Shown piece by piece: positions 7,516-25,464 of a stretch of DNA of 64,000 bases; the first letter of the stretch is position 1, and each line of letters begins with the position of its first letter. The DNA is taken from the NCBI GenBank assembly GCA_016178595.1, contig JACOSY010000014.1:4256-68255 (forward strand), in the 5' to 3' direction. The position numbers and the translations under genes were made by a program. This DNA comes from Ignavibacteria bacterium. GTDB taxonomy: Bacteria > Bacteroidota > Ignavibacteria > UBA10030 > SZUA-254. Under the pieces are notes generated by a model. It searched no databases. It saw only the letters and a program-made list of their open reading frames with translations, and had not been told where the DNA came from.

Positions 7516-8871
7516 ATGCGAACATTATTCCGCCATTTCGTGCTTGTTGTGTTATTGAATGCAGCATGGTACATGACGGCTGTGTCGAAGCAACATGCTG
7601 CCACAGCCGATTCGGTGAAAGAGGAGTTCCAACACGCCTGGAGCTCCTACAAACAATACGCATGGGGACACGACGCGCTCAAACCATTGAGCAAGCAACC
7701 CCACGATTGGTACGGCACGTCGCTGTACATGACGCCCGTCGATGCGTACGATGTGATGTTGCTGATGGGACTTACGAAGGAAGCCGCCGAGGCAAAGCAG
7801 CTCATCCTCGACAGTCTTTCGTTCAACAAGGACATCGAAATTCAAAGTTTCGAGATTACCATCCGTCATTTGGGTGGATTGCTCGCCGCGTATCAGATGG
7901 ATGGCAACAAACGTTTCCTTGCCCTCGCCGAGGATCTCGGGAAACGACTTCTGCCGGTCTACAATTCTCATACAGGGATGCCGTATCGGTTCGTTCATCT
8001 GCAAACTGGAATGATACGCGACTCGATCAATAATCCTGCCGAGATCGGCACGGCGCTTCTCGAATTCGGAACGTTGAGCAAACTTACCGGCAATTCAATC
8101 TATTACGAGAAGGCAAAGAGCGCGCTCGTTCAATTATACAACCATCGCTCGAAGATAGGTCTTGTCGGTACCTGGATCAACGTCGAGACCGGAGAGTGGG
8201 TCGACAGCACAAGCCACATCGGTGGGGCGATAGATTCTTATTATGAATATCTTTTGAAAGCGTGGCTCTTGTTCGGTGATAAAGAGTGTAAGGCGATGTG
8301 GGATGAGAGCATCAAAGCGATTGAGACCTATCTTGCCGATACGACACATGGCGGGTTGTGGTATGGTCAAGTCGATATGAATACTGGAAAACGTACGGGC
8401 ACGACGTTCGGATCGCTTGAAGCGTTCTTCCCGGCAGTGCTATGTCTTGTAGGAGACACATCGAGAGCCGCTGTGCTTGAGGAGTCGTGTTTGAAAATGT
8501 GGAATCTCTACGGGATAGAACCCGAGGAAATAAACTACGCAACGATGAAAGTGACAGCGAAACAATATCATTTGAGACCGGAGATCATCGAGTCTGCGTA
8601 TTATCTGTATCGTTCTACCGGCGACCCGAAGTATTTGCGGATGGGGGAGACATTCTTTAATGGAATCGTCAAGTATTGCAGGGCGGATGCAGGGTATGCA
8701 TCGCTACGGGACGTCACGACCAAAGAGAAAGACGACGCCATGCAGAGCTTCTTTTTTGCAGAGACGATGAAATATCTCTATTTACTCTTTGCGCCGAAGG
8801 AAACATTGCCGTTCGAGAAGGTTATTTTCACAACGGAAGCTCATCCGATTTGGAAGACTCACAAGGAATGA
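7516..8871 (+). CDS. Glycoside hydrolase family 47 (class I alpha-1,2-mannosidase)
   Basis: 451 aa. Signal peptide and GH47 hallmark motifs (IRHLGGLL, DSYYEYLLKAW, EAFF). Full-length (alpha/alpha)7 barrel. Confidence 0.8.
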   Translation: MRTLFRHFVLVVLLNAAWYMTAVSKQHAATADSVKEEFQHAWSSYKQYAWGHDALKPLSKQPHDWYGTSLYMTPVDAYDVMLLMGLTKEAAEAKQLILDSLSFNKDIEIQSFEITIRHLGGLLAAYQMDGNKRFLALAEDLGKRLLPVYNSHTGMPYRFVHLQTGMIRDSINNPAEIGTALLEFGTLSKLTGNSIYYEKAKSALVQLYNHRSKIGLVGTWINVETGEWVDSTSHIGGAIDSYYEYLLKAWLLFGDKECKAMWDESIKAIETYLADTTHGGLWYGQVDMNTGKRTGTTFGSLEAFFPAVLCLVGDTSRAAVLEESCLKMWNLYGIEPEEINYATMKVTAKQYHLRPEIIESAYYLYRSTGDPKYLRMGETFFNGIVKYCRADAGYASLRDVTTKEKDDAMQSFFFAETMKYLYLLFAPKETLPFEKVIFTTEAHPIWKTHKE

Positions 8872-9053
8872 TCCGGATGGAGTTGGTGACACACCTTGAT
8901 GAGAATCTTGAGTGGCCGGACATTACTTTGTTGCTGGTGGTGTTGATTTCGTTGCCTCCGATTATTGTGCCCCATTGAAATGAAGCGAGCGTTGCAGAAC
9001 AATGCTCGGTACATCACAATAGTGCAGACAATCTCGGACTTGATCTGACAAAA

Positions 9054-9746
9054 ATGCCCCCACTCCTTCTTCTCCATGGCGCTCTCGGCTCGAAAGAGCA
9101 GTTCGATCCGCTTCTTCAACTCCTTTCAGATAATCTTCCTGTTCATTCATTGAACTTCACGGGCCACGGCAGCGTACCGCTCACCGATGAGCCGTTTTGC
9201 ATCGAGCTCTTTTGCACGGACGTGCTGGAATGGATGGATCGAGAGAAAATCGACTGCGCCGACATCTTCGGCTACAGTATGGGAGGCTGCGTCGGTCTTT
9301 TCCTCGCCCGGCACCATCCAACAAGGGTCAACAGGATCATGACCCTTGCGACAAAATTCCAGTGGGACGCAATCACCGCACAACGTGAAGCTGCACGCCT
9401 CGAACTGAAAGTAATCGAATCGAAGCTGCCTGCGTTTGCGCAACAACTCGCCCAACGCCACTCCGAGCAGAACTGGCGGGGGGTGGTTGAACGCACCGCC
9501 GCGATGATGCTGGCACTTGGAGAAAAGCCGACGCTCACGGAGCAAGACCTCTGCAGTATTCAGCACACCGTTCTCGTCAGCGTCGGCGACCGAGATACGA
9601 TGGTCGGAATCGAGGAAACGGCGGCAGCGTACCGCTCACTACCAAACGCGCAACTCCTTATCCTGCCCGGTACGCCGCATCCGCTTGAGCGTGTAGAACC
9701 AAAGCGGCTCGCGCGGGAAATCAAAGCATTCTTTTCAGTTGATTGA
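9054..9746 (+). CDS. Alpha/beta-hydrolase fold protein
   Basis: HGALGS oxyanion region. GYSMGG nucleophile elbow. Confidence 0.75.
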   Translation: MPPLLLLHGALGSKEQFDPLLQLLSDNLPVHSLNFTGHGSVPLTDEPFCIELFCTDVLEWMDREKIDCADIFGYSMGGCVGLFLARHHPTRVNRIMTLATKFQWDAITAQREAARLELKVIESKLPAFAQQLAQRHSEQNWRGVVERTAAMMLALGEKPTLTEQDLCSIQHTVLVSVGDRDTMVGIEETAAAYRSLPNAQLLILPGTPHPLERVEPKRLAREIKAFFSVD

Positions 9747-9995
9747 CATTGTCTCGACGAATCTCTACCTTGAAACGTCTTCTAACGGTGGATATTGTGC
9801 GATCAGAATAACCGGAAGTTTTTACACAGCTAATTCTTAAAAAAACTGAACTTGTACGACGTTCGACGTCTCTGTCGTATACTCCCGACGATCATGCCAG
9901 GCAAGATACGTAGATCACTCAGGGATATTTTTCAGCGAGAGACGACAAATCAATAAGAAGCCGTTACCGGTTCACGGAACCAAGAGGTGCCGCCG

Positions 9996-10145
9996 ATGAT
10001 TGAACAGACAATTTCACACTACGAACTCACCCTGTGGTCCCTCTCTAAAATTAGAGAGGGACGAAATGGCTTCGCCAGCGCCTCCCCTTCTCTAAGTTTA
10101 GAGAAGGGGAATGAGGGGATGAGTTCCGACGAAAGGACAGCATGA
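9996..10145 (+). CDS. Putative leader mini-ORF (49 aa) mimicking the kinase N-terminus, ATGA-coupled to kinase 1
   Basis: RBS AAGAGG. Begins MIEQTISHYEL (compare kinase MIGQTISHYKIL). Runs through two perfect palindromes. Its TGA stop overlaps the kinase ATG (gcATGAtc). Confidence 0.3.
   Translation: MIEQTISHYELTLWSLSKIREGRNGFASASPSLSLEKGNEGMSSDERTA
10030..10141. repeat. Palindromic repeat element type B (two 10-12 bp perfect hairpins), copy 1
   Basis: tccctctctaaaat/tagagaggga and ccccttctcta..tagagaagggg. Homologous to copies at 25044-25200 and 17843-17934. Confidence 0.7.
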
Positions 10146-12835
10146 TCGGTCAGACTATCTCCCACTATAAGATCCTCGAGAAGCTCGGCGAGGGCGGAAT
10201 GGGCATCGTCTACAAAGCCGAGGACACCAAACTTGATCGCATGGTTGCACTCAAGTTCCTCCCATCTCATCTCGCTGCATCGGAACAGGATAAAGCTCGC
10301 TTCATTCAAGAAGCGAAAGCAGCGGCTGCTCTGAACCATCCCAATGTATGCTCCATCATTGACATCCAGGAACATGATGGACAGATGTTCATCGTGATGG
10401 AGTTTGTGGACGGACAAACACTGAGAGAGAAAAAGGAGGCGATCAGCTTCAAGCAAGCAATCGATATTGGTATCCAGATTGCAGACGGTTTGGCTGCCGC
10501 TCATGAAAAAGGCATTGTCCACAGGGACATCAAACCGGAAAACATTATGGTGCGTAGAGATGGGATTTGCCAGGTCATGGATTTTGGTCTGGCAAAACTC
10601 CGGAATGCTTCGAGCAAAATTAACCGGTTGACAAAGGAAGGTAGCACGGTTGGAACTGCCGGTTACATGTCACCCGAGCAGGTGCAGGGACAGGATACTG
10701 ATCATCGATCGGATATTTTTTCTCTCGGTGTGCTGCTGTATGAGTTATTTACAGGTCAGCTTCCCTTCAAAGGAGTTCATGAAACGGCACTCTTGTACGA
10801 GATTGTGAATGTCGATGCGCCACCGATGTCTGCCGTTAAGCCGGAGATTGATCCGAGTCTGGACGCAATTGTTCTCGAATGTTTGGCAAAAGAACCGAGT
10901 GAGCGGTACCAATCAGTGGCAGAAGTAGGAAAAGAACTGCGAAGATTCAAACGTGAATCAAGCCGCTCACGCGTGAGCCGCGTGACCTCAGTTCGTGATG
11001 TGTACAAAAGCTCAACCGGAAATGTTCAAACTCCTTCTCCACAATTTTCCATATCGGAACCTTTGCCCGAGAAAAAATCGCGTTTGATCATCTGGTTATC
11101 GACAACAATACTCTTTGTTCTTTCGACTGCAGCATTGGCTTTTTTGTATTTGCGGGAATCTTCAAAAGAAATAAGCCCTGTTCGCTTTACCCTCTCGCCT
11201 CCGGCGAAAGGCGTCTTTGAAGGTTATGCGCCGGTCATCTCGCCCAGCGGACAGCTGCTCGCATTTGTTGCGAGGGATTCTTCCGGCAAGTCGATGATAT
11301 GGATTCGTCCCCTTGCGTTTCTTCGTTCTGAACCTCTTCCGGGAACCGATAATGCGACGTATCCTTTTTGGTCTCCCGATAGCCGCTTTCTCGGCTTCTT
11401 CCAAGGTGGCAAGCTGAAGAAGATCGAGGTCAATGGCGGGCCGGCACAAACTGTTGCCGATGCACCGGATGGCAGAGGCGGTTCGTGGAGCAACTCAGGG
11501 ATAATTATTTTTGCGCCGAGTTATGGAACCGGACTTGTCCAGGTTCCGGAATCAGGCGGCAAGCTAATAGAATTGACAACTCTTGACACGTCTCGCAGAG
11601 AAGAAACTCATCGCTTTCCTAATTTTTTGCCTGACGGTCAGCATTTTACCTATCTCAGTCGCAGTACTGAAGACGAAAAAACAGGTGCCTATCTCGGTTC
11701 ACTCGACGGAAAAGTCCATACGTTGCTTCTTCCTAATAAGTCCAACGTCATGTTTGCTGCCCCTGGCTATTTGCTCTTCATACGGGAGAGATCGCTCATG
11801 GCACAACCATTCAATGCAGACAAGGGTGAATTCCGAGGCGACGCGTTTCCGATTGCTCAGGACGTGGGAAGCAACACGCGCGGCAACGGCTTTTTTTCGT
11901 CTTCGGCAAATGGTGTCCTTGTTTTTGTCGGCGGTGGAGGGGCGAGCGGTGAGAGACAATTTGCGTGGTATGATCGTACCGGAAAGCGTCTTGAGAAAGT
12001 GGGCTCGCCCGGAAATCTCGGTGATATGGCACTCTCTCCGGATGAAAAGCGCGTCGTGTTTCGCCGCATCGATCCACAAACCAGCAATCAAGATCTCTGG
12101 ATTCTTGATCTCCTGCGCCGCACCGAGTCCCGGTTTACATTTCGTCCTGCCACGGACGACGATCCGGTATGGTCTCCTGACGGCAGCAAAATTGTTTTTG
12201 ATTCGAACCCTGATGGAGTACCGAATCCGTTCGAAAAGATAGCCACAGGAGCAGGAACTGAACAGCTCCTCTGGAAATTTTCCAGCTCTACCATTCCATA
12301 CGATTGGTCTTCAGACGGACGCTACATTCTTCTAAGACAAGAAAATCGCGATACAAAGAGTGATTTATGGGCTTTACCTCTCTTCGGGGAAAAGAAACCC
12401 TTCCCTGTTCTCCAAACGGAAGCTTCAGAAGATGTTGGGCGCTTCTCTCCCGATGGACGGTGGATTGCCTATGAGTCGGATGAGTCCGGGAAATCTGAGG
12501 TGTACATTCAGGCATTTCCTGCAAGTCAGGGGAAATGGCAGGTGTCAGTCAATGGTGGTGGGGCGCCGCTGTGGAGCAAAGATGGTAAGGAAATCTTTTA
12601 CCTTGCACCGGATAAGAGATTGATGGTCGTCGATGTCAAGCTCCTGGGTACCTCGATCGAACAAGGAATTCCTAAACCACTCTTTGATACTTTTGTTGAT
12701 AATTATGATGCACCCAACCGTTATGCCGTTTCCAGAGATGGGAAGCGGTTTCTTGTCAATAACTCGACCGATAGTGACAGCTCAAAACCAATTATGGTAG
12801 TGTTGAACTGGACGGCGGAGGTAACGAAGAAATGA
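10142..12835 (+). CDS. Ser/Thr protein kinase with TM segment and C-terminal TolB-like (PD40/WD40-like) beta-propeller
   Basis: Hanks kinase motifs (GxGxxG, VALK, HRDIKPEN, DFG, SPE). Hydrophobic TM at ~aa 310. Repeated SPDG/PD40 motifs in the C-terminal half. Confidence 0.9.
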   Translation: MIGQTISHYKILEKLGEGGMGIVYKAEDTKLDRMVALKFLPSHLAASEQDKARFIQEAKAAAALNHPNVCSIIDIQEHDGQMFIVMEFVDGQTLREKKEAISFKQAIDIGIQIADGLAAAHEKGIVHRDIKPENIMVRRDGICQVMDFGLAKLRNASSKINRLTKEGSTVGTAGYMSPEQVQGQDTDHRSDIFSLGVLLYELFTGQLPFKGVHETALLYEIVNVDAPPMSAVKPEIDPSLDAIVLECLAKEPSERYQSVAEVGKELRRFKRESSRSRVSRVTSVRDVYKSSTGNVQTPSPQFSISEPLPEKKSRLIIWLSTTILFVLSTAALAFLYLRESSKEISPVRFTLSPPAKGVFEGYAPVISPSGQLLAFVARDSSGKSMIWIRPLAFLRSEPLPGTDNATYPFWSPDSRFLGFFQGGKLKKIEVNGGPAQTVADAPDGRGGSWSNSGIIIFAPSYGTGLVQVPESGGKLIELTTLDTSRREETHRFPNFLPDGQHFTYLSRSTEDEKTGAYLGSLDGKVHTLLLPNKSNVMFAAPGYLLFIRERSLMAQPFNADKGEFRGDAFPIAQDVGSNTRGNGFFSSSANGVLVFVGGGGASGERQFAWYDRTGKRLEKVGSPGNLGDMALSPDEKRVVFRRIDPQTSNQDLWILDLLRRTESRFTFRPATDDDPVWSPDGSKIVFDSNPDGVPNPFEKIATGAGTEQLLWKFSSSTIPYDWSSDGRYILLRQENRDTKSDLWALPLFGEKKPFPVLQTEASEDVGRFSPDGRWIAYESDESGKSEVYIQAFPASQGKWQVSVNGGGAPLWSKDGKEIFYLAPDKRLMVVDVKLLGTSIEQGIPKPLFDTFVDNYDAPNRYAVSRDGKRFLVNNSTDSDSSKPIMVVLNWTAEVTKK

Positions 12836-12936
12836 TCGGTCAAATCCCAAAACTGCCCGCGAGTGTTCTTCAACGAGTGGCTACAGTTTTGCGGATCCCG
12901 ACGTTTTTTGTCGGGACCCATGGGAGTTCTTTATGA
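12832..12936 (+). CDS. Linker mini-ORF (34 aa, MIGQIPKL...) ATGA-overlapping both kinase 1 stop and kinase 2 start
   Basis: Its ATG overlaps the kinase-1 TGA and its TGA overlaps the kinase-2 ATG. It encodes through the type A two-hairpin element. Confidence 0.3.
   Translation: MIGQIPKLPASVLQRVATVLRIPTFFVGTHGSSL
12846..12932. repeat. Two-hairpin spacer element type A, copy 1
   Basis: Stem caaaactg...cagttttg plus stem cccgac..gtcggg. Homologous (~75%) to 17748-17827 with compensatory changes in both stems. Confidence 0.6.
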
Positions 12937-15305
12937 TAGGACAAACAATATCCCACTATAAGATCCTCGAGAAGCTCGGCGAGGGCGGGATGGGCATCGT
13001 CTACAAAGCCCAGGATACCAAGCTTGATCGTATTGTCGCGCTAAAGTTTCTTCCTCACAATCTCACCGCGAACGAAGCGGAAAAATCCCGCTTTGTACAA
13101 GAGGCACGGGCTGCAGCCATCCTCAACCATCCGCACGTCTGTACTATTTATCGTATCGATGAATATAACGGTCAACAATTCATTGAGATGGAATATGTCG
13201 ATGGTGAAACCCTGCGGCGGAAAGTTCCGATCCAAAAGATTGAGGAAGCGTTACGCTGTGCGATTCAGATCGGAGAAGCGTTGCAAGAAGCCCACAGCAA
13301 AGGGATCGTTCACCGCGACATCAAGTGCGAAAACATTATGGTGAACTCGAAGAACCAGATTAAAGTAATGGACTTCGGTCTCGCGAAACTCAAAGGCTCT
13401 ATGAAACTGACACGGACCTCAAGCACGGTCGGTACGCTCGCCTACATGGCGCCGGAACAAATCCAAGGCGGAGAGGTGGATGCACGGTCCGATATCTTTT
13501 CGTATGGCGTTGTTATCTTTGAAATGTTCACAGGGCACACGCCGTTCCGTGGAGAGCACGAGGCGTCGATGATGTATTCCATAATGAACGAAGATCCTGA
13601 ACAACTCGTGAAGTACAGACCCGAACTATCGACCGATATCCAGCGCATTATTAACCGCGCATTGGAAAAAGATCCGGAAGATCGGTATCAACATGCCGAT
13701 GATATGGTGAGTGAATTGCGTCGTGTTCAAAAACAATCGGGGCGCGTAACACGAACAATGCAGATTGAGTCGTCTCCAACGATGCCGGCAACGACAAAGG
13801 ATCAACAAAGTGATCGCGAAAGCGTTCCGCGACTGAAATCAAAGATAAAACTTATTATCGGAATGATCTCGGTAGCGGTGATCATCGGTGTCGCTGCGCT
13901 GTATTTTCTGTTCAACAAGCAGAAGGCAATAGATTCCTTAGCTATTCTGCCATTTGAAGATGTTAGTGCAGCACCTGAACAAGAGTATCTTGCCGATGGC
14001 GTGACGGAAAGTATCATCAACAATCTTACGAAGATCTCTTCACTGAGAGTTGTTCCCCGCAGTACGGTCTTTCGTTTCAAAGGGAAGGATATGGATCTTC
14101 AGGATATCGGTTCAAAGCTCAAAGTCAATGCAATATTGACGGGAAGAATCACACACAGAGGTCAGTCGCTTGAAGTTCAAGTCGACCTGATCGATGTTGA
14201 TCGTCAATCGCAATTGTGGGGTAATCGTTATGTATCGACTGCAAGCGATTTGCTGACACTCCAGGAGAGCATTACAAAAGATGTTTCATCGAAACTCGGA
14301 ATTGGGTTTTCCTCGGAAACTCAAGAAAAACTTGCGAAGCGCTACACGGACAACACACAGGCGTATCAACTATACATGCAAGGGCGTTACTACTGGAATA
14401 AACGCACTGCGGCGGCACTCGAACGTGCCATTAGTTATTTCAATCAAGCCATTGCGCTCGACTCTACCTTTGCTCTTGCGTATAGTGGATTAGCCGATAG
14501 CTACATCATTCAGTCACAGTACGCCGGGATACCCACAGGCATTACTCTTCCATTGACGCAAAGGGCTGTACGGCGAGCGTTGGAACTGGACAATTCTCTT
14601 GCCGAGGCGCATACAACGCTTGCGTTCAGTTATTTTGAGCAGTGGAAGTATGAGGATGCGGAGCGCGAGTTCAAACAATCCATCGCGTTGAACCCCCGGT
14701 ATGCGACAACATATCACTGGTATGGCATTATGCTCGGCAGAACCGGCAATCCCGATCGCTATCTTGCCGTTATCAAGCAAGCACTAGAGATTGATCCGTA
14801 CTCCCCTATCATCACGCTCAATATGGGGGTGGCAAATTTGCTTTTGAAACAGTATGACGAAGCGTTGAGCTATTTCAAAAAGTGTGTGGAGATTGATCCC
14901 TCCTTTGCCGTTGGATACGGCTGGATGGGACTTACGTATGAACGAATGAAAAACTATCGTGACGCGCTATCACCGCTGCAAAAAGCCGTTGAGTTATCCG
15001 GTCGCTCGAGTGAATGCTTATCATATATCGGGTATTTTTATGGACGTGTCGGAAAAAGAGATGAGGCGCTCAAGCTTATCAAGGAAAATGAGGATCGCTA
15101 TCACGCAGGCACCGGCGCCGCCTATAGCATCGCTCGCATCTATGCAGGATTGGGTGAGAAGGAAAAGGTTCTGGAATTATTGGAGCAAGACTACCGCGAT
15201 CATAGTACATGGATTAATTCTCTCGGCAGCGATTACGTGTGGGATGATGTCCGCAGCGATCCCCGGTTTGTTGAGTTGACGAAGAAGGTAGGTTTGGTGA
15301 AATGA
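12933..15305 (+). CDS. Ser/Thr protein kinase with TM, juxtamembrane ectodomain module and C-terminal TPR repeats
   Basis: Kinase motifs as above. TM at ~aa 300. Conserved LAILPFEDVS...EYLADGVTESII module, then TPR-like repeats. Confidence 0.9.
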   Translation: MIGQTISHYKILEKLGEGGMGIVYKAQDTKLDRIVALKFLPHNLTANEAEKSRFVQEARAAAILNHPHVCTIYRIDEYNGQQFIEMEYVDGETLRRKVPIQKIEEALRCAIQIGEALQEAHSKGIVHRDIKCENIMVNSKNQIKVMDFGLAKLKGSMKLTRTSSTVGTLAYMAPEQIQGGEVDARSDIFSYGVVIFEMFTGHTPFRGEHEASMMYSIMNEDPEQLVKYRPELSTDIQRIINRALEKDPEDRYQHADDMVSELRRVQKQSGRVTRTMQIESSPTMPATTKDQQSDRESVPRLKSKIKLIIGMISVAVIIGVAALYFLFNKQKAIDSLAILPFEDVSAAPEQEYLADGVTESIINNLTKISSLRVVPRSTVFRFKGKDMDLQDIGSKLKVNAILTGRITHRGQSLEVQVDLIDVDRQSQLWGNRYVSTASDLLTLQESITKDVSSKLGIGFSSETQEKLAKRYTDNTQAYQLYMQGRYYWNKRTAAALERAISYFNQAIALDSTFALAYSGLADSYIIQSQYAGIPTGITLPLTQRAVRRALELDNSLAEAHTTLAFSYFEQWKYEDAEREFKQSIALNPRYATTYHWYGIMLGRTGNPDRYLAVIKQALEIDPYSPIITLNMGVANLLLKQYDEALSYFKKCVEIDPSFAVGYGWMGLTYERMKNYRDALSPLQKAVELSGRSSECLSYIGYFYGRVGKRDEALKLIKENEDRYHAGTGAAYSIARIYAGLGEKEKVLELLEQDYRDHSTWINSLGSDYVWDDVRSDPRFVELTKKVGLVK

Positions 15306-15396
15306 TCGGACAGATAATTTTTAAATTGACTCATTGTCCCATTGATTCATTTATCCAATGTGTTCAATGAGCAAATGAGAAAATGAAAACATTATC

Positions 15397-17736
15397 ATGA
15401 TCGGTCAAACGATATCACATTACAAGATTCTCGAAAAGCTCGGCGAAGGCGGGATGGGCATCGTGTACAAAGCCCACGATGAAAAACTTGATCGCATGGT
15501 TGCCCTGAAGTTTCTCCCTGCGACTGTCGTCTCATCGCAGGACGAGGCTGTGCGTTTCGAGCGGGAGGCAAAGGCAATCTCCGCTCTCAATCATCCCGGC
15601 ATTGCTACTATCCATGACATTGATGAAACCGACGGGAAGAAATTTCTCGTTTTGGAGTACATCTCCGGGGGCACGCTGAAATCAAAACTCAAAAAGCTTA
15701 AGTCTGATGATAAAGAGTTTACGGTTGCGGAGGTGATCGACTACGGCATCCAGATGGCTGAAGGACTGGGCCACGCCCACAGGCATCAGATCGTCCATCG
15801 CGATGTCAAGAGCGACAACGTGATGCTGACCGAAGAAGGCAAAGTGAAAATCACCGACTTCGGTCTGGCGAAACTCCGGAGCACAACGCATCTGACAAGG
15901 ACAGGCAGTACGATCGGCACACTTGCGTACATGGCACCTGAGCAATTGCGGGGCGAGGAAATCGATCATCGTGCCGACTTGTTTTCACTCGGTGTTGTCC
16001 TCTACGAAATGGCAACTTCGCGTCTTCCCTTCCGGGGCGAGCATGAAGCGGCGTTGACGTATTCGATTGCGAATGAGGATCCGGCTCCTGTGAAGTCACT
16101 TCGGCCGAATCTGCCGCCGGTGCTGGAACAGGTCATCACGAAATGTCTGCAGAAGGACAGAGCACTTCGCTACCAGAGCGCAGATGAGATTGTTGCTGAC
16201 TTGCGCACATTGCAGCACGAAACGACAGGCACGGTGAAAACCGTCGTCGTGAAGCAACAATCGAAACTTCAATGGATGATTGCGTCGGCGCTTGTAGTGG
16301 TTGTCGCTGTCGCACTCTATCTCCTCATGCCATCATCACATCCCACATCGACAAATAGTAAAACGATCGCCGTTCTGCCGTTTGTCAATATGAGCGGCGA
16401 CCCGCAGGACGAGTATTTCAGTGATGGAATGACGGAAGACATTCTGACACAACTTTCCAAGATCGCCGATTTGAAAGTTATCTCCCGCACCTCGGTGATG
16501 AAATATAAACATACAGAGAAATCAATACGGGAGATCGGGAATGATCTCAATGCCGGCGTAGTGCTTGAAGGGAGCGTGCGACGAGCTGAAAATCAAATAC
16601 GCATCACTGCGCAGTTGATCGACGCCAGCACTGATGAGCACCTCTGGGCAGAAAGCTACGACAAGGAGTTCAAACAGATTTTCGCGGTCCAGAGTGATGT
16701 CGCACAACGGGTTGCAGATGCGCTCAAGATTCAATTGATGGGTGACGAAAAGCGATCGGTCGAAAAAGAGGCAACGCAGAACCTCGAAGCCTATAATCTC
16801 TATCTTAAAGGACGCTACTTCCTGGGCAAGAGGACCGAAGACGGGCTGAAGAAGGCGATAGAATTTTTCCAACAAGCGGTCGAGAAAGATACTGCGTACG
16901 CAATTGCTTATGCCGGACTCGCAGATTCGTATACCCTGCTTGCGCTGCTGGAATTTCTTCCTCCTCGAGAGGCATTTCCGAAAGCAAAAGCTGCTGCCGA
17001 AAAAGCAATTATGATTGATCCATCGATCGCAGAGGCGCACGCTTCATTAGGGGTCGTGAGATTTCAGTACGATTGGGATTGGCCCGCGGCTGAACAAGAA
17101 TATACTCGCGCAATTGCACTGAAGAAAAATTATGGAACAGCACACCACTACTATGCCGACTTTCTGAAAGGTATGGGTCGCTTCGATCAAGCACTCTCCG
17201 AAATTAAGAAAGCCCAGGAGCTCGATCCACTCTCGCTGGCAATTAACACCGGCCTCGGTCACGTCCTCTATTTGTCCCGGCACTACGATCAAGCGATCGA
17301 GCAATATCGACGAACCCTGGAAATGGATCCCAATTTCCTGCAGGCAAGGCTCTGGTTTGGCAGACCCTATCTGCAAAAGAAGATGTACAAAGAAGCGATT
17401 TCTGAATTACAGGCGGCTGTACAACTGTCTGGCAACAGTACAATCGCATGTGCCATGCTCGGACACGCGTACGCTGCTGCGGGAAACAAAAAAGAAGCTT
17501 TGAAAATGCTCGATGAGTTGACAAAAAGATCCGAGCATCAGTATGTTCCCTCATATTGGATTGGAATGATCTACATTGGCTTCGGCGATAAGGACAAAGC
17601 CTTTGCCTGGCTTGATAAGGCATACGATGAGCGATCTGCCTGGTTGGCGTGGCTCAAAGTGGAGCCGAGATTTGATACTTTGCGCTCAGACCAGCGCTTC
17701 ACGACACTTTTAAAGAAGATGGGACTGGAACAATGA
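15397..17736 (+). CDS. Ser/Thr protein kinase with TM, juxtamembrane module and C-terminal TPR repeats (paralog)
   Basis: Same architecture as 12933-15305. IAVLPFVNMSGDPQDEYFSDGMTEDIL module plus TPR repeats. Confidence 0.9.
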   Translation: MIGQTISHYKILEKLGEGGMGIVYKAHDEKLDRMVALKFLPATVVSSQDEAVRFEREAKAISALNHPGIATIHDIDETDGKKFLVLEYISGGTLKSKLKKLKSDDKEFTVAEVIDYGIQMAEGLGHAHRHQIVHRDVKSDNVMLTEEGKVKITDFGLAKLRSTTHLTRTGSTIGTLAYMAPEQLRGEEIDHRADLFSLGVVLYEMATSRLPFRGEHEAALTYSIANEDPAPVKSLRPNLPPVLEQVITKCLQKDRALRYQSADEIVADLRTLQHETTGTVKTVVVKQQSKLQWMIASALVVVVAVALYLLMPSSHPTSTNSKTIAVLPFVNMSGDPQDEYFSDGMTEDILTQLSKIADLKVISRTSVMKYKHTEKSIREIGNDLNAGVVLEGSVRRAENQIRITAQLIDASTDEHLWAESYDKEFKQIFAVQSDVAQRVADALKIQLMGDEKRSVEKEATQNLEAYNLYLKGRYFLGKRTEDGLKKAIEFFQQAVEKDTAYAIAYAGLADSYTLLALLEFLPPREAFPKAKAAAEKAIMIDPSIAEAHASLGVVRFQYDWDWPAAEQEYTRAIALKKNYGTAHHYYADFLKGMGRFDQALSEIKKAQELDPLSLAINTGLGHVLYLSRHYDQAIEQYRRTLEMDPNFLQARLWFGRPYLQKKMYKEAISELQAAVQLSGNSTIACAMLGHAYAAAGNKKEALKMLDELTKRSEHQYVPSYWIGMIYIGFGDKDKAFAWLDKAYDERSAWLAWLKVEPRFDTLRSDQRFTTLLKKMGLEQ

Positions 17737-17747
17737 TCGGATAAATT

Positions 17748-17827
17748 CCAAAACTCCCCACGAACGAAGTGAGTGGATGGAGTTTTGAGAATCCCGCTGT
17801 TCTTTAGCGGGACCTAATGGAGACTTG
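17748..17827. repeat. Two-hairpin spacer element type A, copy 2
   Basis: caaaactcc...ggagttttg and tcccgc..gcggga stems. Flanked by ATGATCGG kinase-start-like motifs. Confidence 0.6.
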
Positions 17828-17842
17828 ATGATCGGACAAATA

Positions 17843-17934
17843 ATTTCACACATACCCTCACCCTATAATCCCTCTCCCAAATTGGGAGAGGGATGTCACG
17901 AAGTGACAGGGAGAGGGTCAACAAGGGCAAGGCT
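17843..17934. repeat. Palindromic repeat element type B variant
   Basis: tccctctcccaaat/tgggagaggga perfect palindrome plus tgtcac-gaa-gtgaca. Preceded by ATGATCGGACAAATAATTTCACAC. Confidence 0.55.
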
Positions 17935-18236
17935 ATGATTGGGACGACCGTTTCTCACTACAAGATACTTGAGAAGCTGGATGAGGCGCCATGGGCGTAG
18001 TCTACAAAGCCGAAAACACCAAGCTCGATTGGATTGTTGCCATCAAGTTTTTTTCTAAGCGACTTTCCGCCCACGGAGAGAAGCATGAGTTGCTTGATTT
18101 TGACGCTCATGGCCGGGTGACCCTCACTGATGTGACTGCAGATGGCAGTCGGTTCTTGATTTCCAACTCTCCTGCCGGACTGGTTCAACCGATCACGATG
18201 GTGACAAATTGGGACAAGGAGTTGAAGAAGAAATGA
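17935..18236 (+). pseudogene. Ser/Thr kinase paralog remnant: internally deleted and frameshifted
   Basis: MIGTTVSHYKILEKL then a -1 frameshift versus paralogs (gagggcgg to gagg-cgcc). The kinase N-terminus (~35 aa) is joined directly to a TolB-type C-terminal tail (QPITMVTNWDKELKKK, compare the kinase-1 end PIMVVLNWTAEVTKK). Confidence 0.7.
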
Positions 18237-18246
18237 GGAACGTGCT

Positions 18247-18594
18247 ATGATGCATTTCGGACAAACATTGTCAACGATCGTCGAACAGTCGGAACGACTA
18301 AAGGAAGTCTACAAGACCAGCTTGCATCCCGGCGATTGTCTCGTCGTCAAGACGTGCAATTCGGTCTACACTATTCGGGCATTGGAGGACGGTTCTTTTA
18401 CTGCTTCAGGCGGTTGGTTCGATCGCAAGGGCAAGTCCCCGATGAAAGTACGGATCAATGGATGTACGTGGGGTGGAAGTGCCATCAAAATCAATATCGC
18501 GGCGGCAGCGGGATTATGTTTGGAGTTTGGCAACAGGGTCAGGACGAGCCCCATCCGGCATATTGTGATATTTCCAAACGGAAGCATTAATTGA
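18247..18594 (+). CDS. Hypothetical protein (115 aa) upstream of Y-family polymerase
   Basis: ORF with plausible composition. No recognised family. Confidence 0.4.
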   Translation: MMHFGQTLSTIVEQSERLKEVYKTSLHPGDCLVVKTCNSVYTIRALEDGSFTASGGWFDRKGKSPMKVRINGCTWGGSAIKINIAAAAGLCLEFGNRVRTSPIRHIVIFPNGSIN

Positions 18595-18640
18595 TTGCAT
18601 CGCCAAGATTGGATGAACACCGGGGGGCGGAAGTTCTGCG

Positions 18641-19897
18641 ATGCAGCTCTTGAAGTGGCTATTTTTGGATTTGAATTCGTATTTTGCTTCGGTTGAACAG
18701 GAGTTACGTCCTGAACTGCGAAGTAAACCGGTTGGCGTAGTGCCCGTCATGGCCGATACGACATGCTGTATTGCGGCAAGCTATGAGGCGAAAGCCTTCG
18801 GTGTCAAGACCGGCACGATGGTTGCCGATGCGAAACGGTTGTGTCGCGATATTCAGCTCGTCGAAGCGCGGCACGAGGTGTACGTACATTACCACAATAA
18901 AATTGTGGAGGCAATAGACACGTGCCTGCCGATCGCGGCAGTTGTCTCCATCGATGAGATGGCATGTGAGCTTACGGGAAGTCAACAAGTTGTCGAGAAT
19001 GCGGTCGCTCTCTCGAAAAAAATCAAGACGAAGATTCGGGAGAACGTCGGCTCGACACTCCGCTGCTCAATCGGTTTGGCTCCCAATCGTTTTCTTGCGA
19101 AGGTCGGGAGCGACATGCAAAAACCGGATGGCTTAACAGTTATCCAACAAACCGACCTTCCCGATATTCTCTATACCTTGCAAACAAACGACTTTCCGGG
19201 AATCGGACGGCGCATGGAACGCAGACTGAAAAAGCACGGCGTCGATACTTCGAAACAACTTCTCGGGCTCTCCAAATCCGAGATGCAAACGATCTGGGGA
19301 GGAATTGTCGGTGAGCGTTTCTGGCGTTTGCTGCGCGGGGAAGATCTCGCCGAGCTCCACACGGAGCGGCGAACAGTCGGCCATTCCCATGTCCTCTCAC
19401 CAAACATGCGAACGATCGAGCGTGCTTTTCTTGTGTCACAAAAACTCGTGCACAAGGCAGCGGCACGTCTCCGGCGTTTACATTACTGGACGTGCCGGCT
19501 TTCCGTGTATGTTAGATTCATGGATAAGACTTCCTGGGGGGATGAAGTATGCATGATCGAATGCCAGGATACATTGACGATGTTGGAAGGACTGCAGCTC
19601 TTGTGGAAGAACATCCCCTCGAAAAAGCCGCTGGCAGTCGGCGTGACACTCTCGCATCTCATTCCGGATAATCTGCACGATTTTTCATTCTTCGATGAAG
19701 CAAAACGAACCCGTCTTGCGAAGGCGATGGACAAGCTGAATTACAAGTACGGTGCGAACCTTGTCCACTTTGGCGACATGGAATTAGTGAAAGCCGCGGC
19801 TCCAACGCGTATCGCATTCACGAGCATCCCGGACTTGGAAGACCTTGATCCACACTTCGTCCTCAAGCGCGGTCAAGGCGAAGTGTCCGGGCAATAG
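18641..19897 (+). CDS. Y-family DNA polymerase (DinB/UmuC-like)
   Basis: N-terminal LDLNSYFASVEQ. SIDE catalytic motif. Palm, fingers and little-finger length consistent (418 aa). Confidence 0.75.
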   Translation: MQLLKWLFLDLNSYFASVEQELRPELRSKPVGVVPVMADTTCCIAASYEAKAFGVKTGTMVADAKRLCRDIQLVEARHEVYVHYHNKIVEAIDTCLPIAAVVSIDEMACELTGSQQVVENAVALSKKIKTKIRENVGSTLRCSIGLAPNRFLAKVGSDMQKPDGLTVIQQTDLPDILYTLQTNDFPGIGRRMERRLKKHGVDTSKQLLGLSKSEMQTIWGGIVGERFWRLLRGEDLAELHTERRTVGHSHVLSPNMRTIERAFLVSQKLVHKAAARLRRLHYWTCRLSVYVRFMDKTSWGDEVCMIECQDTLTMLEGLQLLWKNIPSKKPLAVGVTLSHLIPDNLHDFSFFDEAKRTRLAKAMDKLNYKYGANLVHFGDMELVKAAAPTRIAFTSIPDLEDLDPHFVLKRGQGEVSGQ

Positions 19898-20092
19898 TCA
19901 CGAAAGAATTTCATAGTATCTCGAAACATCCATTTGGAAACTATCAGAATTAAGAGTATTTTGATATGCGATAGAACAGGATCGCAGGTCCCCCACCACC
20001 GTAGCTACCTACGACAGGAGTATATCGTCGTATGGCTCGCCGCAGGGGCGGGCACAAGTCACAATTCATTTCTCACACATTATGAGGTTCAT

Positions 20093-24377: not shown

Positions 24378-25043
24378 GTTTGTTCCCTCCTTTAAGATGA
24401 ATGCCTTATGTGTATGCTGAACTTTTCCCCCGGAGCGCCTTCAATGAGATACAGTCAGGCGGTGGACGAATCACCAATGGTGATGAGAGAGAAATAATTG
24501 GTATCAGGTTCATGGCCGAGATCCGGAAAGTATGCGAGAGTAGACTCGCAAGATATATCTACGGTGAAAACGTTTCAGAGATGGGTGCGGAAAGAACCCG
24601 ATGAGGAGATAGCATAATACATTTGCGCACTGACTGACTCGTGGTCATTCGCTTCCTCAAAGCGAGGATATTTCCCTCGTCGCTGTGAGTCTTATGTCTC
24701 GGAGGGAATGATGACTTCCGATCCCGCGGCGCTGTTGCGGAACCAAACCAAGCGTGCCCCTATCCGTTCTAATGAATTGATCGGAATAAGTGGAATATAC
24801 ATTTGTACTCTTCGAAAGTCAAGTTCCTGGCGTATGAGCCATCGACTCATAAAAAAGGTAGCCGAACGGAGTCCGGAAAAGAGTTGTTGCATCATATATA
24901 TATATATGCAGCCATCTCAGTTTGTACTGAAACACGTTCCTTGACTTTCCTTCTGCTCTATAGTGAATGAGATATTAACGATGAAGGAACACCTGGCCAA
25001 ACGTATGTGGGCGTGAAGAAGATGTTATTGATGAAATAGTAAC

Positions 25044-25200
25044 CGAACTCACCTCGACGAGTCGAGTCGTCGACCTGTAGTCTCCCAAAGGGATCCCTTT
25101 GGGACCTCTCTAAAATTAGAGAGGGACGCGATCGCGCACCCCTTCTCTACTTGTAGAGAAGGGGTGGGGGATGAGTCCGATGAGAGCAAAGGCAAAGCCC
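25044..25200. repeat. Palindromic repeat element type B, copy 3 (extra hairpin), flanked by ~20-bp direct repeats
   Basis: tcccaaaggga/tccctttggga, cctctctaaaattagagagg and ccccttctctacttgtagagaagggg. Flanking direct repeats gatgttattgatgaaatag (25021-25039) and gatgttgttgatgaagtg (25215-25232). Confidence 0.65.
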
Positions 25201-25464
25201 AATCAGTGAACGAGATGTTGTTGATGAAGTGACGTTCCTCTCGCAACGGTCTTTGTGGCGGGTTCTGAAATAGAGATCGAAGCACAAAAGCCGTTCCGAA
25301 GAATCGAAACGGCTTTTTTAATAAACTACCCCGCCGCAGGCGGAGGGGTGATTGAAAAGAAGGGGATACGCTGGAGGAAGCAATGAGAATCGGTTTCTCA
25401 TGCTCCTCCGACCTTCGTCGGAATGGATGATGAGCCGCGGAGAAGACCGGCGACGAACCGGTCT

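Follow-up and report, generated by a model that had tools for sequence, protein, structure and literature searches.

Introduction

Rickettsia palindromic elements (RPEs) are small repeats of palindromic sequence that enter protein-coding genes and are found in frame in the host protein. tRNA genes are the targets of integrative elements, bounded by attL and attR, that carry a replacement gene end, and cis-mobilisable remnants of such elements exist. The attC sites of integrons comprise an R box, an L box and a variable terminal structure. REP/BIME sequences are described as extragenic palindromes of 20-40 bp with a GTAG or CGTC tag at one end, the tag defining superfamilies (PMC3733652). We compare with these systems a repeat, referred to as E, that is present twice in a 64,000-nucleotide stretch of Ignavibacteria DNA (the window), where a preliminary description had pointed out two similar spacers just upstream of kinase starts.

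E and the RPEs are both short, hairpin-forming and non-autonomous, tolerated in coding regions and, putatively in the case of E, read by ribosomes. Unlike the RPEs, E splits its gene into a short upstream ORF (uORF) and a complete restarted gene with a second 5' end, and it is also found in tRNA genes. A plain in-frame insertion of the RPE kind is seen at another kinase start (locus L043, ~8490-8560): a 66-nt insert follows the codons ISHY, the start being otherwise intact and not duplicated.

With REP/BIME sequences and MITEs, E shares a small size, a structured and non-autonomous character and a high copy number across a lineage, and its first hairpin is an imperfect inverted repeat. It nevertheless differs from REP/BIME by its length (68-100 nt), its two different hairpins, the lack of a GTAG or CGTC end tag and its location within the 5' parts of genes. 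It differs also from MITEs. No terminal inverted repeats span E: its 5' end (TYCCAAAAC) pairs inside hairpin 1, while its 3' end is a separate hairpin (TCCCGN..NCGGGA). Nor is there a short target duplication of fixed size; the flanks are gene-start remnants of 11-114 nt, 65-85% identical in kinases, and the right-hand gene-start repeat is separated from E by a tail. No autonomous transposase-encoding relative was seen near the E copies of the window. The idea of a miniature inverted-repeat element, raised at first sight of the two spacers, thus survives as a spreading non-autonomous repeat, on account of the shared blocks and the presence/absence patterns given below, but not as a classical MITE, for want of spanning terminal repeats and a fixed duplication.

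As with tRNA-targeting integrative elements, the target stays intact, the insert brings the displaced gene end, and a partial duplicate lies on the far side; an intact tRNA gene and its partial direct duplicate across the insert were found at tRNA-His, -Arg, -Gly and -Val loci. The differences are of three kinds. The E unit measures only ~100-200 bp and has no integrase, the insert being E plus its tail. It mostly replaces the 5' end of the gene rather than the 3' end, at many positions and in several gene families. Finally, there is no fixed core crossover site: the junctions vary, and the block ends resemble those of homologous exchange.

Two E copies in a kinase gene array

Ser/Thr kinase genes are arrayed in tandem on the + strand of the window: K1 (10142-12835; kinase and PD40 beta-propeller), K2 (12933-15305) and K3 (15397-17736), both kinase and TPR, and K4 (start at 17935), a degenerate kinase remnant. 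In a protein search an NCBI protein of an Ignavibacteriae MAG matched K2 with 100% identity; a T9SS sorting domain near the array is in keeping with that group. The kinase start motif ATGATCGGNCARA occurs nine times in the window, never outside the kinase cluster, and the stop codon of each kinase falls within such a motif.

The spacers at 12846-12932 and 17748-17827 had been described as ~75% identical and as folding into the same two stems with compensatory differences. Both points are correct. Global alignment gives 59 matches, i.e. 74.7% identity over aligned columns. Stem 1 is CAAAACTG/CAGTTTTG in copy 1 and CAAAACTCC/GGAGTTTTG in copy 2, stem 2 is CCCGAC/GTCGGG and CCCGC/GCGGG respectively, and pairing is kept in every case. 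Folding yields an identical two-hairpin shape, with -35.3 kcal/mol (z -2.3) for copy 1 and -34.6 kcal/mol (z -4.3) for copy 2. The combined E motif is found twice in the window and in none of 100 shuffles, and the covariance model described below scores the copies at 79.5 and 84.9 bits respectively, the next match in the 64 kb reaching 18.9 bits.

The covariance model and the fold support both copies, and alignments in addition copy 1; all features below lie on the + strand. Copy 1 proper spans 12845-12917 (hairpin 1, 12845-12895; hairpin 2, 12896-12916). It is preceded by a remnant kinase start, ATGATCGGTCAAA (12832-12844; codons 1-4 plus 1 nt), whose TGA at 12833-12835 is the K1 stop, and followed by a tail, CCATGGGAGTTCTTT (12918-12932), with a Shine-Dalgarno-like GGGAG 8 nt upstream of the K2 ATG; comparable tails are present in other E copies. 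Copy 2 proper spans 17746-17813 (hairpin 1, 17746-17791; hairpin 2, 17792-17812), between the remnant start ATGATCGGATAAA (17733-17745; TGA 17734-17736, the K3 stop) and the tail CTAATGGAGACTTG (17814-17827; GGAG) that precedes the next start at 17828.

In both copies ATGATCGGNCAAA, containing the stop of the upstream kinase, lies just 5' (12832 and 17733), and ATGAT[AC]GG lies 3' (12933 and 17828). The copies do therefore sit between duplicated start motifs, as first described; but the two ATGATCGG motifs are a remnant and a replacement 5' end, usually from different paralogues, and no insertion-site motif. Likewise, each spacer ends at an ATGA (12933 and 17828), while E proper ends 14-15 nt earlier, those nucleotides before the ATG forming the purine-rich, Shine-Dalgarno-like tail. 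In a consensus scan of E, promoter matches were not above shuffled expectation; the same holds for intrinsic terminators, and no U-tract follows hairpin 2.

The K2/K3 junction (15302-15396, + strand) has no E. It begins with a comparable remnant start, ATGATCGGACAGATAATTT, which contains the K2 stop, and continues with an AT-rich, unstructured leader unrelated to the E spacers and similar to the leaders preceding kinase genes in L015 and L056. These leaders carry repeated CATTGAYTCATT and AAATGA motifs (window 15321-15396; L015 ~2620-2730; L056 3690-3780 and 5910-6000) and may be the native promoter or leader of the kinase family. As for the K4 relic (17935-18236), its start reads MIGTTVSHYKILEKLDEAPWA followed by a stop; after a frame break comes an ORF (17991-18236) whose C-terminal end is similar to that of the PD40-type kinase K1, which suggests that K4 arose through an internal deletion.

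A family of structured repeats

A pattern derived from the two window copies was scanned in one genome per species and in JGI metagenomes. This gave 28 loci in the genomes and 27 in the metagenomes, with an estimated ~2-4 expected by chance; true E copies are present in ~45 of these loci, and a handful are chance matches in coding DNA of Flavobacteriaceae. The true matches come almost all from MAGs labelled Ignavibacteria, Bacteroidota, Chlorobi-like or Zixibacteria and from metagenomes, and amount to ~50 copies beyond those of the window. The search beyond the window with a covariance model, proposed at the outset as a check, gave 75 matches within the collected loci for a model of 73 positions, and covariation was supported.

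E is ~68-100 nt long. Hairpin 1 is long and bulged (TYCCAAAACTN-CCAC-GA...GAG-GTGG-nn-NAGTTTTGnGRA), with a conserved foot, a 2-nt bulge, a CCAC/GTGG box and a conserved tandem G.A/A.G; its terminal part is variable, from a 3-nt loop up to a nested hairpin. The short GC hairpin 2 (TCCCGN...NCGGGA) follows immediately. RNAalifold applied to 21 copies in a MAFFT-based alignment recovered the two hairpins with 8 compensated pairs. Among 51 distinct copies aligned to the model 98.1% of cells pair, as compared with 32-51% in every slid control, and 20 of the 25 pairs are changed on both sides; this alignment was fitted to the covariance model, and the MAFFT-based result agrees with it. Comparison across the family thus shows the predicted structure of E to be under selection. 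That the structure is a selected one had been proposed from the two window copies, which alone would be insufficient; it is the ~50 homologues elsewhere that establish the covariation.

Wobble pairs are scarce: G.U accounts for 15 of 1267 cells (1.2%) and A.C for 11, with no strand bias. Since G.U is rare and no commoner than A.C, wobbles do not tell which strand or molecule is the functional one, and a constraint at the DNA level is plausible. Rfam returned 0 matches (cmscan, window 9000-20000, E<=1); blastn found no match to E in phage and plasmid collections, the pattern had no match in viral contigs, and a full-text search of the searchable literature found no description of E. E is an undescribed family of small non-autonomous structured repeats of Ignavibacteria, Bacteroidota and allied lineages. 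On a contig labelled Parcubacteria (L027, 4840-4988) two weaker E-like copies (47 and 29 bits) lie in inverted orientation at a distance of ~30 nt, away from any kinase or tRNA, which may reflect distant kinship or an artefact of binning.

Insertion points in kinase and tRNA genes

Every clear E copy lies inside the 5' part, once the 3' part, of a conserved gene, in a constant order: 5' remnant of the gene, E, tail, complete gene. In the paralogous Ser/Thr kinases E follows codons 5, 18, 21, 28, 33 or 43 (about six to seven positions in all), with remnants of 13, 52, 60, 76, 90 and 114 nt counted from the ATG, and both the E subfamily and the tail correlate with the insertion codon. For tRNA-His and tRNA-Arg the insertion is in the D-loop, for tRNA-Gly(CCC) in the anticodon loop; at tRNA-Val one E lies in inverse orientation at the 3' side. 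In all these cases a complete tRNA gene follows. This distribution contradicts an insertion specificity for the kinase start, one possibility in the preliminary description, given the range of codons and the tRNA loops used. The question raised there, whether copies elsewhere always adjoin kinase starts, is answered in the negative by the copies in tRNA-His, -Arg, -Gly and -Val genes.

The 5' boundary of E is sharp and constant (R|TYCC), and no sequence is common to the insertion points. E is oriented as the downstream gene in ~14 of 15 placements inferred to be independent. Stacks of units occur, with five units in L023, four in L059 and two identical ones of 124 bp in L006. Several tRNA remnants start within 0-5 nt of the mature 5' end; others carry ~25-45 nt of upstream DNA (L021 and the second unit of L006).

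Some tRNA loci are more complex. Upstream of tRNA-Arg(TCG) in L007 (2090-2220) three 5' tRNA remnants follow one another, one continued by E and the other two by another short insert (TCCCWAAGGGATTTCGC...). At the tRNA-Gly(CCC) loci (L044, 12086-12228; L047; L052) two E copies stand back to back with only TTC between them, and the dead tRNA remnant there contains an inserted 22-nt hairpin, CCCGCC..GGCGGG, that is not accompanied by a duplication. Non-functional DNA may thus receive simple insertions.

uORFs and probable translational coupling

In copy 1 the remnant ATG (12832), which overlaps the K1 stop, opens a 34-codon uORF, MIGQIPKLPASVLQRVATVLRIPTFFVGTHGSSL (12832-12936, + strand), that runs through E from the ATGA at the end of K1 to a TGA overlapping the K2 ATG at 12933. 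As in coupled genes and uORFs with an ATGA junction, the uORF ends in an ATGA overlapping the real start; its stop overlaps the start of the main ORF, which makes it a coupled uORF by arrangement, and stop and start codons overlap without a break from K1 through the uORF to K2. What sets it apart from usual coupled uORFs is that it is a fossil gene start fused to a repeat, and that several can be chained before one gene. Copy 2 precedes the decayed gene and has lost its uORF, the remnant reading ATG ATC GGA TAA (MIG and a stop).

For the kinase-linked copies elsewhere the required phase is found in 25 of 31 (one third expected by chance) and the frame is open to the ATGA in 24 of 31, a count that overstates the number of independent tests, the copies being phylogenetically non-independent and representing ~7 independent lineages. 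A uORF ending in the ATGA of the real start is seen at all six remnant lengths, loop-length variants inside a class differ by multiples of 3, and L023 has four consecutive uORFs, each ending in the following ATGA. The type B spacers of the window, described below, also give uORFs that end in the ATGA of the next start. This pattern indicates that termination precisely at the real start is selected for, which probably means termination-reinitiation coupling or at least avoidance of interference. Judged by its reading frames, translational coupling is a conserved property of kinase-linked E copies. The real kinase starts carry a Shine-Dalgarno-like sequence of their own, so that their translation need not depend on coupling.

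A cis-regulatory RNA for translational coupling was one of the two functions first envisaged for the spacers. Coupling is upheld, 24 of these 31 uORFs (not independent of one another, as said) ending in ATGA; a dedicated regulatory RNA is not, as E also lies upstream of tRNA genes and G.U is rare, and it is unlikely that E is a dedicated riboregulator.

Public gene calls list small ORFs in L057 (3769-3870), L058 (8367-8528) and L060 (8370-8636), of 33, 53 and 88 aa. They overlap both adjoining kinases by ATGA and are remnant-start uORFs with other insert types.

Blocks shared between diverged genes

Three different kinase genes (L010, L017 and L037) are ~100% identical from ~-14 to +189 relative to the E start. 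Outside this block they are 55-65% identical downstream and unrelated upstream. The block starts ~14 nt before E and ends ~95 nt into the new coding sequence, i.e. it overshoots the nominal junctions by ~14 nt on the left and ~21 nt on the right. Block ends that fall within kinase-start homology, off the junctions, are the signature of homologous exchange or gene conversion. In L059 four near-identical units occupy a single array. These alignments show E, its tail and the new gene start as a mobile block of ~170-200 bp, moving among diverged kinase genes within and between genomes. Placement varies also at one orthologous junction: that of K2 has no E in L056 and L057, an E at codon 18 in L059 and an E at codon 5 in the window.

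Kinase remnants and new starts are 65-85% identical, and in L013, the one example examined, the differences are mostly synonymous. Such a divergence of 15-35% identifies them as the starts of two paralogues and not as a fresh target duplication. A fresh target-site duplication by staggered cuts was rejected on this ground and because the tails are unduplicated; in L006, moreover, the leader part of the unit is unlike the resident upstream DNA. Guide-like complementarity between loop and target (the bridge-RNA idea) was also set aside, the loop sequences, compared by eye, not tracking the target type.

In L057 and L058 (11535-11819) a gene for a 94-aa GIY-YIG domain lies directly 3' of the kinase array. 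A GIY-YIG nuclease cutting conserved kinase starts could drive a homing-like spread; the proximity may also be coincidental.

Type B and other inserts

Other small elements (type B, the GGCGGACCTGTCC type and others) occupy equivalent positions, sometimes at the same codon. Type B has three copies in the window, at 10023-10141, 17852-17934 and 25045-25178, and is also present in L004, L008, L038, L046 and L050. Its ends are GAACTCAYC...GGGGATGAGTYC, and its internal hairpins CCCTCTC..GAGAGGG and CCCCTTCTC..GAGAAGGGG.

Two of the window copies split kinase starts as E does, both on the + strand. In the first (9996-10145) a remnant start (9996-10022) and type B (10023-10141) give a uORF of 49 codons, its stop lying in the ATGA at which K1 begins (10142). 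In the second (17828-17938) the remnant start MIGQIISH (17828-17851) and type B (17852 to ~17934) give one of 36 codons, with its stop in the ATGA of the K4 start (17935). The third copy is intergenic. On either side of it lies one of two diverged mini-ORF copies, ATGTTATTGATGAAATAG and ATGTTGTTGATGAAGTGA (25018-25039 and ~25203-25222), both encoding MLLMK followed by a stop: a remnant/restart pattern outside kinase genes.

Discussion

With moderate confidence we regard E as a non-autonomous structured repeat that is passed on through homology-dependent transfer of blocks and stays where translational coupling is kept. It would spread by homologous recombination or gene conversion through the conserved gene start present on both sides, either by gap repair or by a Campbell-type integration of an excised unit made of E, tail and start. 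Recombination through the conserved start would restore the gene automatically and let units stack. The kinase copies would persist because ribosomes from the old start translate E, terminate at the UGA overlapping the new AUG and reinitiate; the outcome in the window would be a coupled chain from K1 through the 34-codon uORF to K2. Some observations fit this explanation less well. Host recombination alone leaves the compensatory conservation of the hairpins unexplained. Ordinary RecA-dependent exchange needs more homology on the left than is provided by remnants of 11-13 nt such as those of the window. Copy 2 of the window has a broken uORF, and in the ORFs scanned no recombinase or transposase was present near the window copies.

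More tentatively, E might be a mini-cassette that restores gene starts, made up of a structured module for recognition, a tail for ribosome binding and a replacement gene 5' end, and inserted in conserved gene starts and tRNA loops by a putative structure-specific nuclease or recombinase, or through an RNA-mediated step; repeated insertion would build up series of coupled uORFs and so tune the expression of the kinases. The insertion mechanism behind E has a real chance of being new.

We find it unlikely that E is mainly a cis-acting regulatory RNA of the 5' leader, binding a protein or ligand, gating kinase translation or tRNA processing, and duplicated with its genes without being mobile. 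The strong structural covariation would suit such an RNA, as would the conserved tandem G.A/A.G and bulges of hairpin 1, the orientation with the downstream gene in ~14 of 15 placements, the conserved uORF phase, and a hairpin 2 that adjoins or overlaps the Shine-Dalgarno-like sequence. But one and the same element precedes tRNAs as well as mRNAs, the orthologous K2 junction is found without E in L056 and L057 and with E at another codon in L059, and near-identical blocks stand within otherwise diverged genes. The gene-start remnants would also be left unexplained, a G.U content of 1.2%, no higher than that of A.C, is unusual for a functional RNA, and Rfam gave no match.

It is rather improbable that E is a folded single-stranded DNA recombination site comparable to attC, by which a tiny cassette of E, tail and replacement start would be moved by a structure-specific recombinase or nuclease dedicated to it and encoded elsewhere. 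The likeness to attC is real on several counts: imperfect bulged hairpins with AAC...GTT at the foot of the stem and a highly variable terminal part, and a position between successive genes of an array. Pairing equally conserved on both strands with very few wobbles, the sharp constant 5' boundary, the correlation of E subfamily with insertion codon, and the tandem identical units of L006, whose leader part is foreign to the resident upstream DNA, all agree with it. Yet the foot of E (YCCAAAAC / GTTTTGR) departs from the attC core consensus RYYYAAC/GTTRRRY, only the AAC and GTT triplets being common to both. Unlike the genes adjoining attC, those adjoining E are homologous kinases with starts of their own, and gene-start remnants flank E. 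No integron integrase (intI) or attI was found, and no recombinase domain was present near the E copies in the ORFs scanned around the array, which are part of the window ORFs. Finally, target sites share no sequence, and the block of L010, L017 and L037 overshoots the junctions as in homologous exchange.

A route through RNA seems very improbable. Here a reverse transcriptase would copy E RNA and switch template onto 5' fragments of tRNA or mRNA, and the chimeric cDNA would recombine at the gene. This would account for insertion points in the D-loop and anticodon loop, which are accessible or cleavage-prone sites of folded tRNA, for the tRNA remnants that start 0-5 nt from the mature 5' end, and for a constant E 5' end with a variable junction position. 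It is at odds with the ~25-45 nt of upstream DNA in other tRNA remnants (L021 and the second unit of L006) and with the window kinases, internal in an overlapping array, whose ATG would hardly coincide with the 5' end of an RNA; the surroundings showed no reverse transcriptase, and integration of the cDNA would itself be left unexplained. That the likeness of the spacers is purely local, a result of tandem kinase duplication in the window without wider significance, has next to nothing left in its favour beyond the kinases being tandem paralogues, and is already refuted by the unrelated spacer of the K2/K3 junction, by the ~50 homologous copies in other genomes and beside tRNA genes, and by the fact that each window copy is nearer to copies in other genomes than to its window partner.

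On the explanation that we favour, a homology-transferred repeat kept where coupling is preserved, a repeat can live in essential or conserved genes without destroying them: it would bring or regenerate the 5' end, the old start becoming a coupled uORF. This would account for the "stuttering" starts and the small overlapping annotated ORFs in the kinase arrays of Ignavibacteria and Bacteroidota, and it suggests that gene conversion is frequent at the ultra-conserved 5' ends of the kinase paralogues. E also provides a new, well-supported structured motif, with a covariance model of 73 positions and ~50 members, for a search for partner proteins or for tests of translational control.
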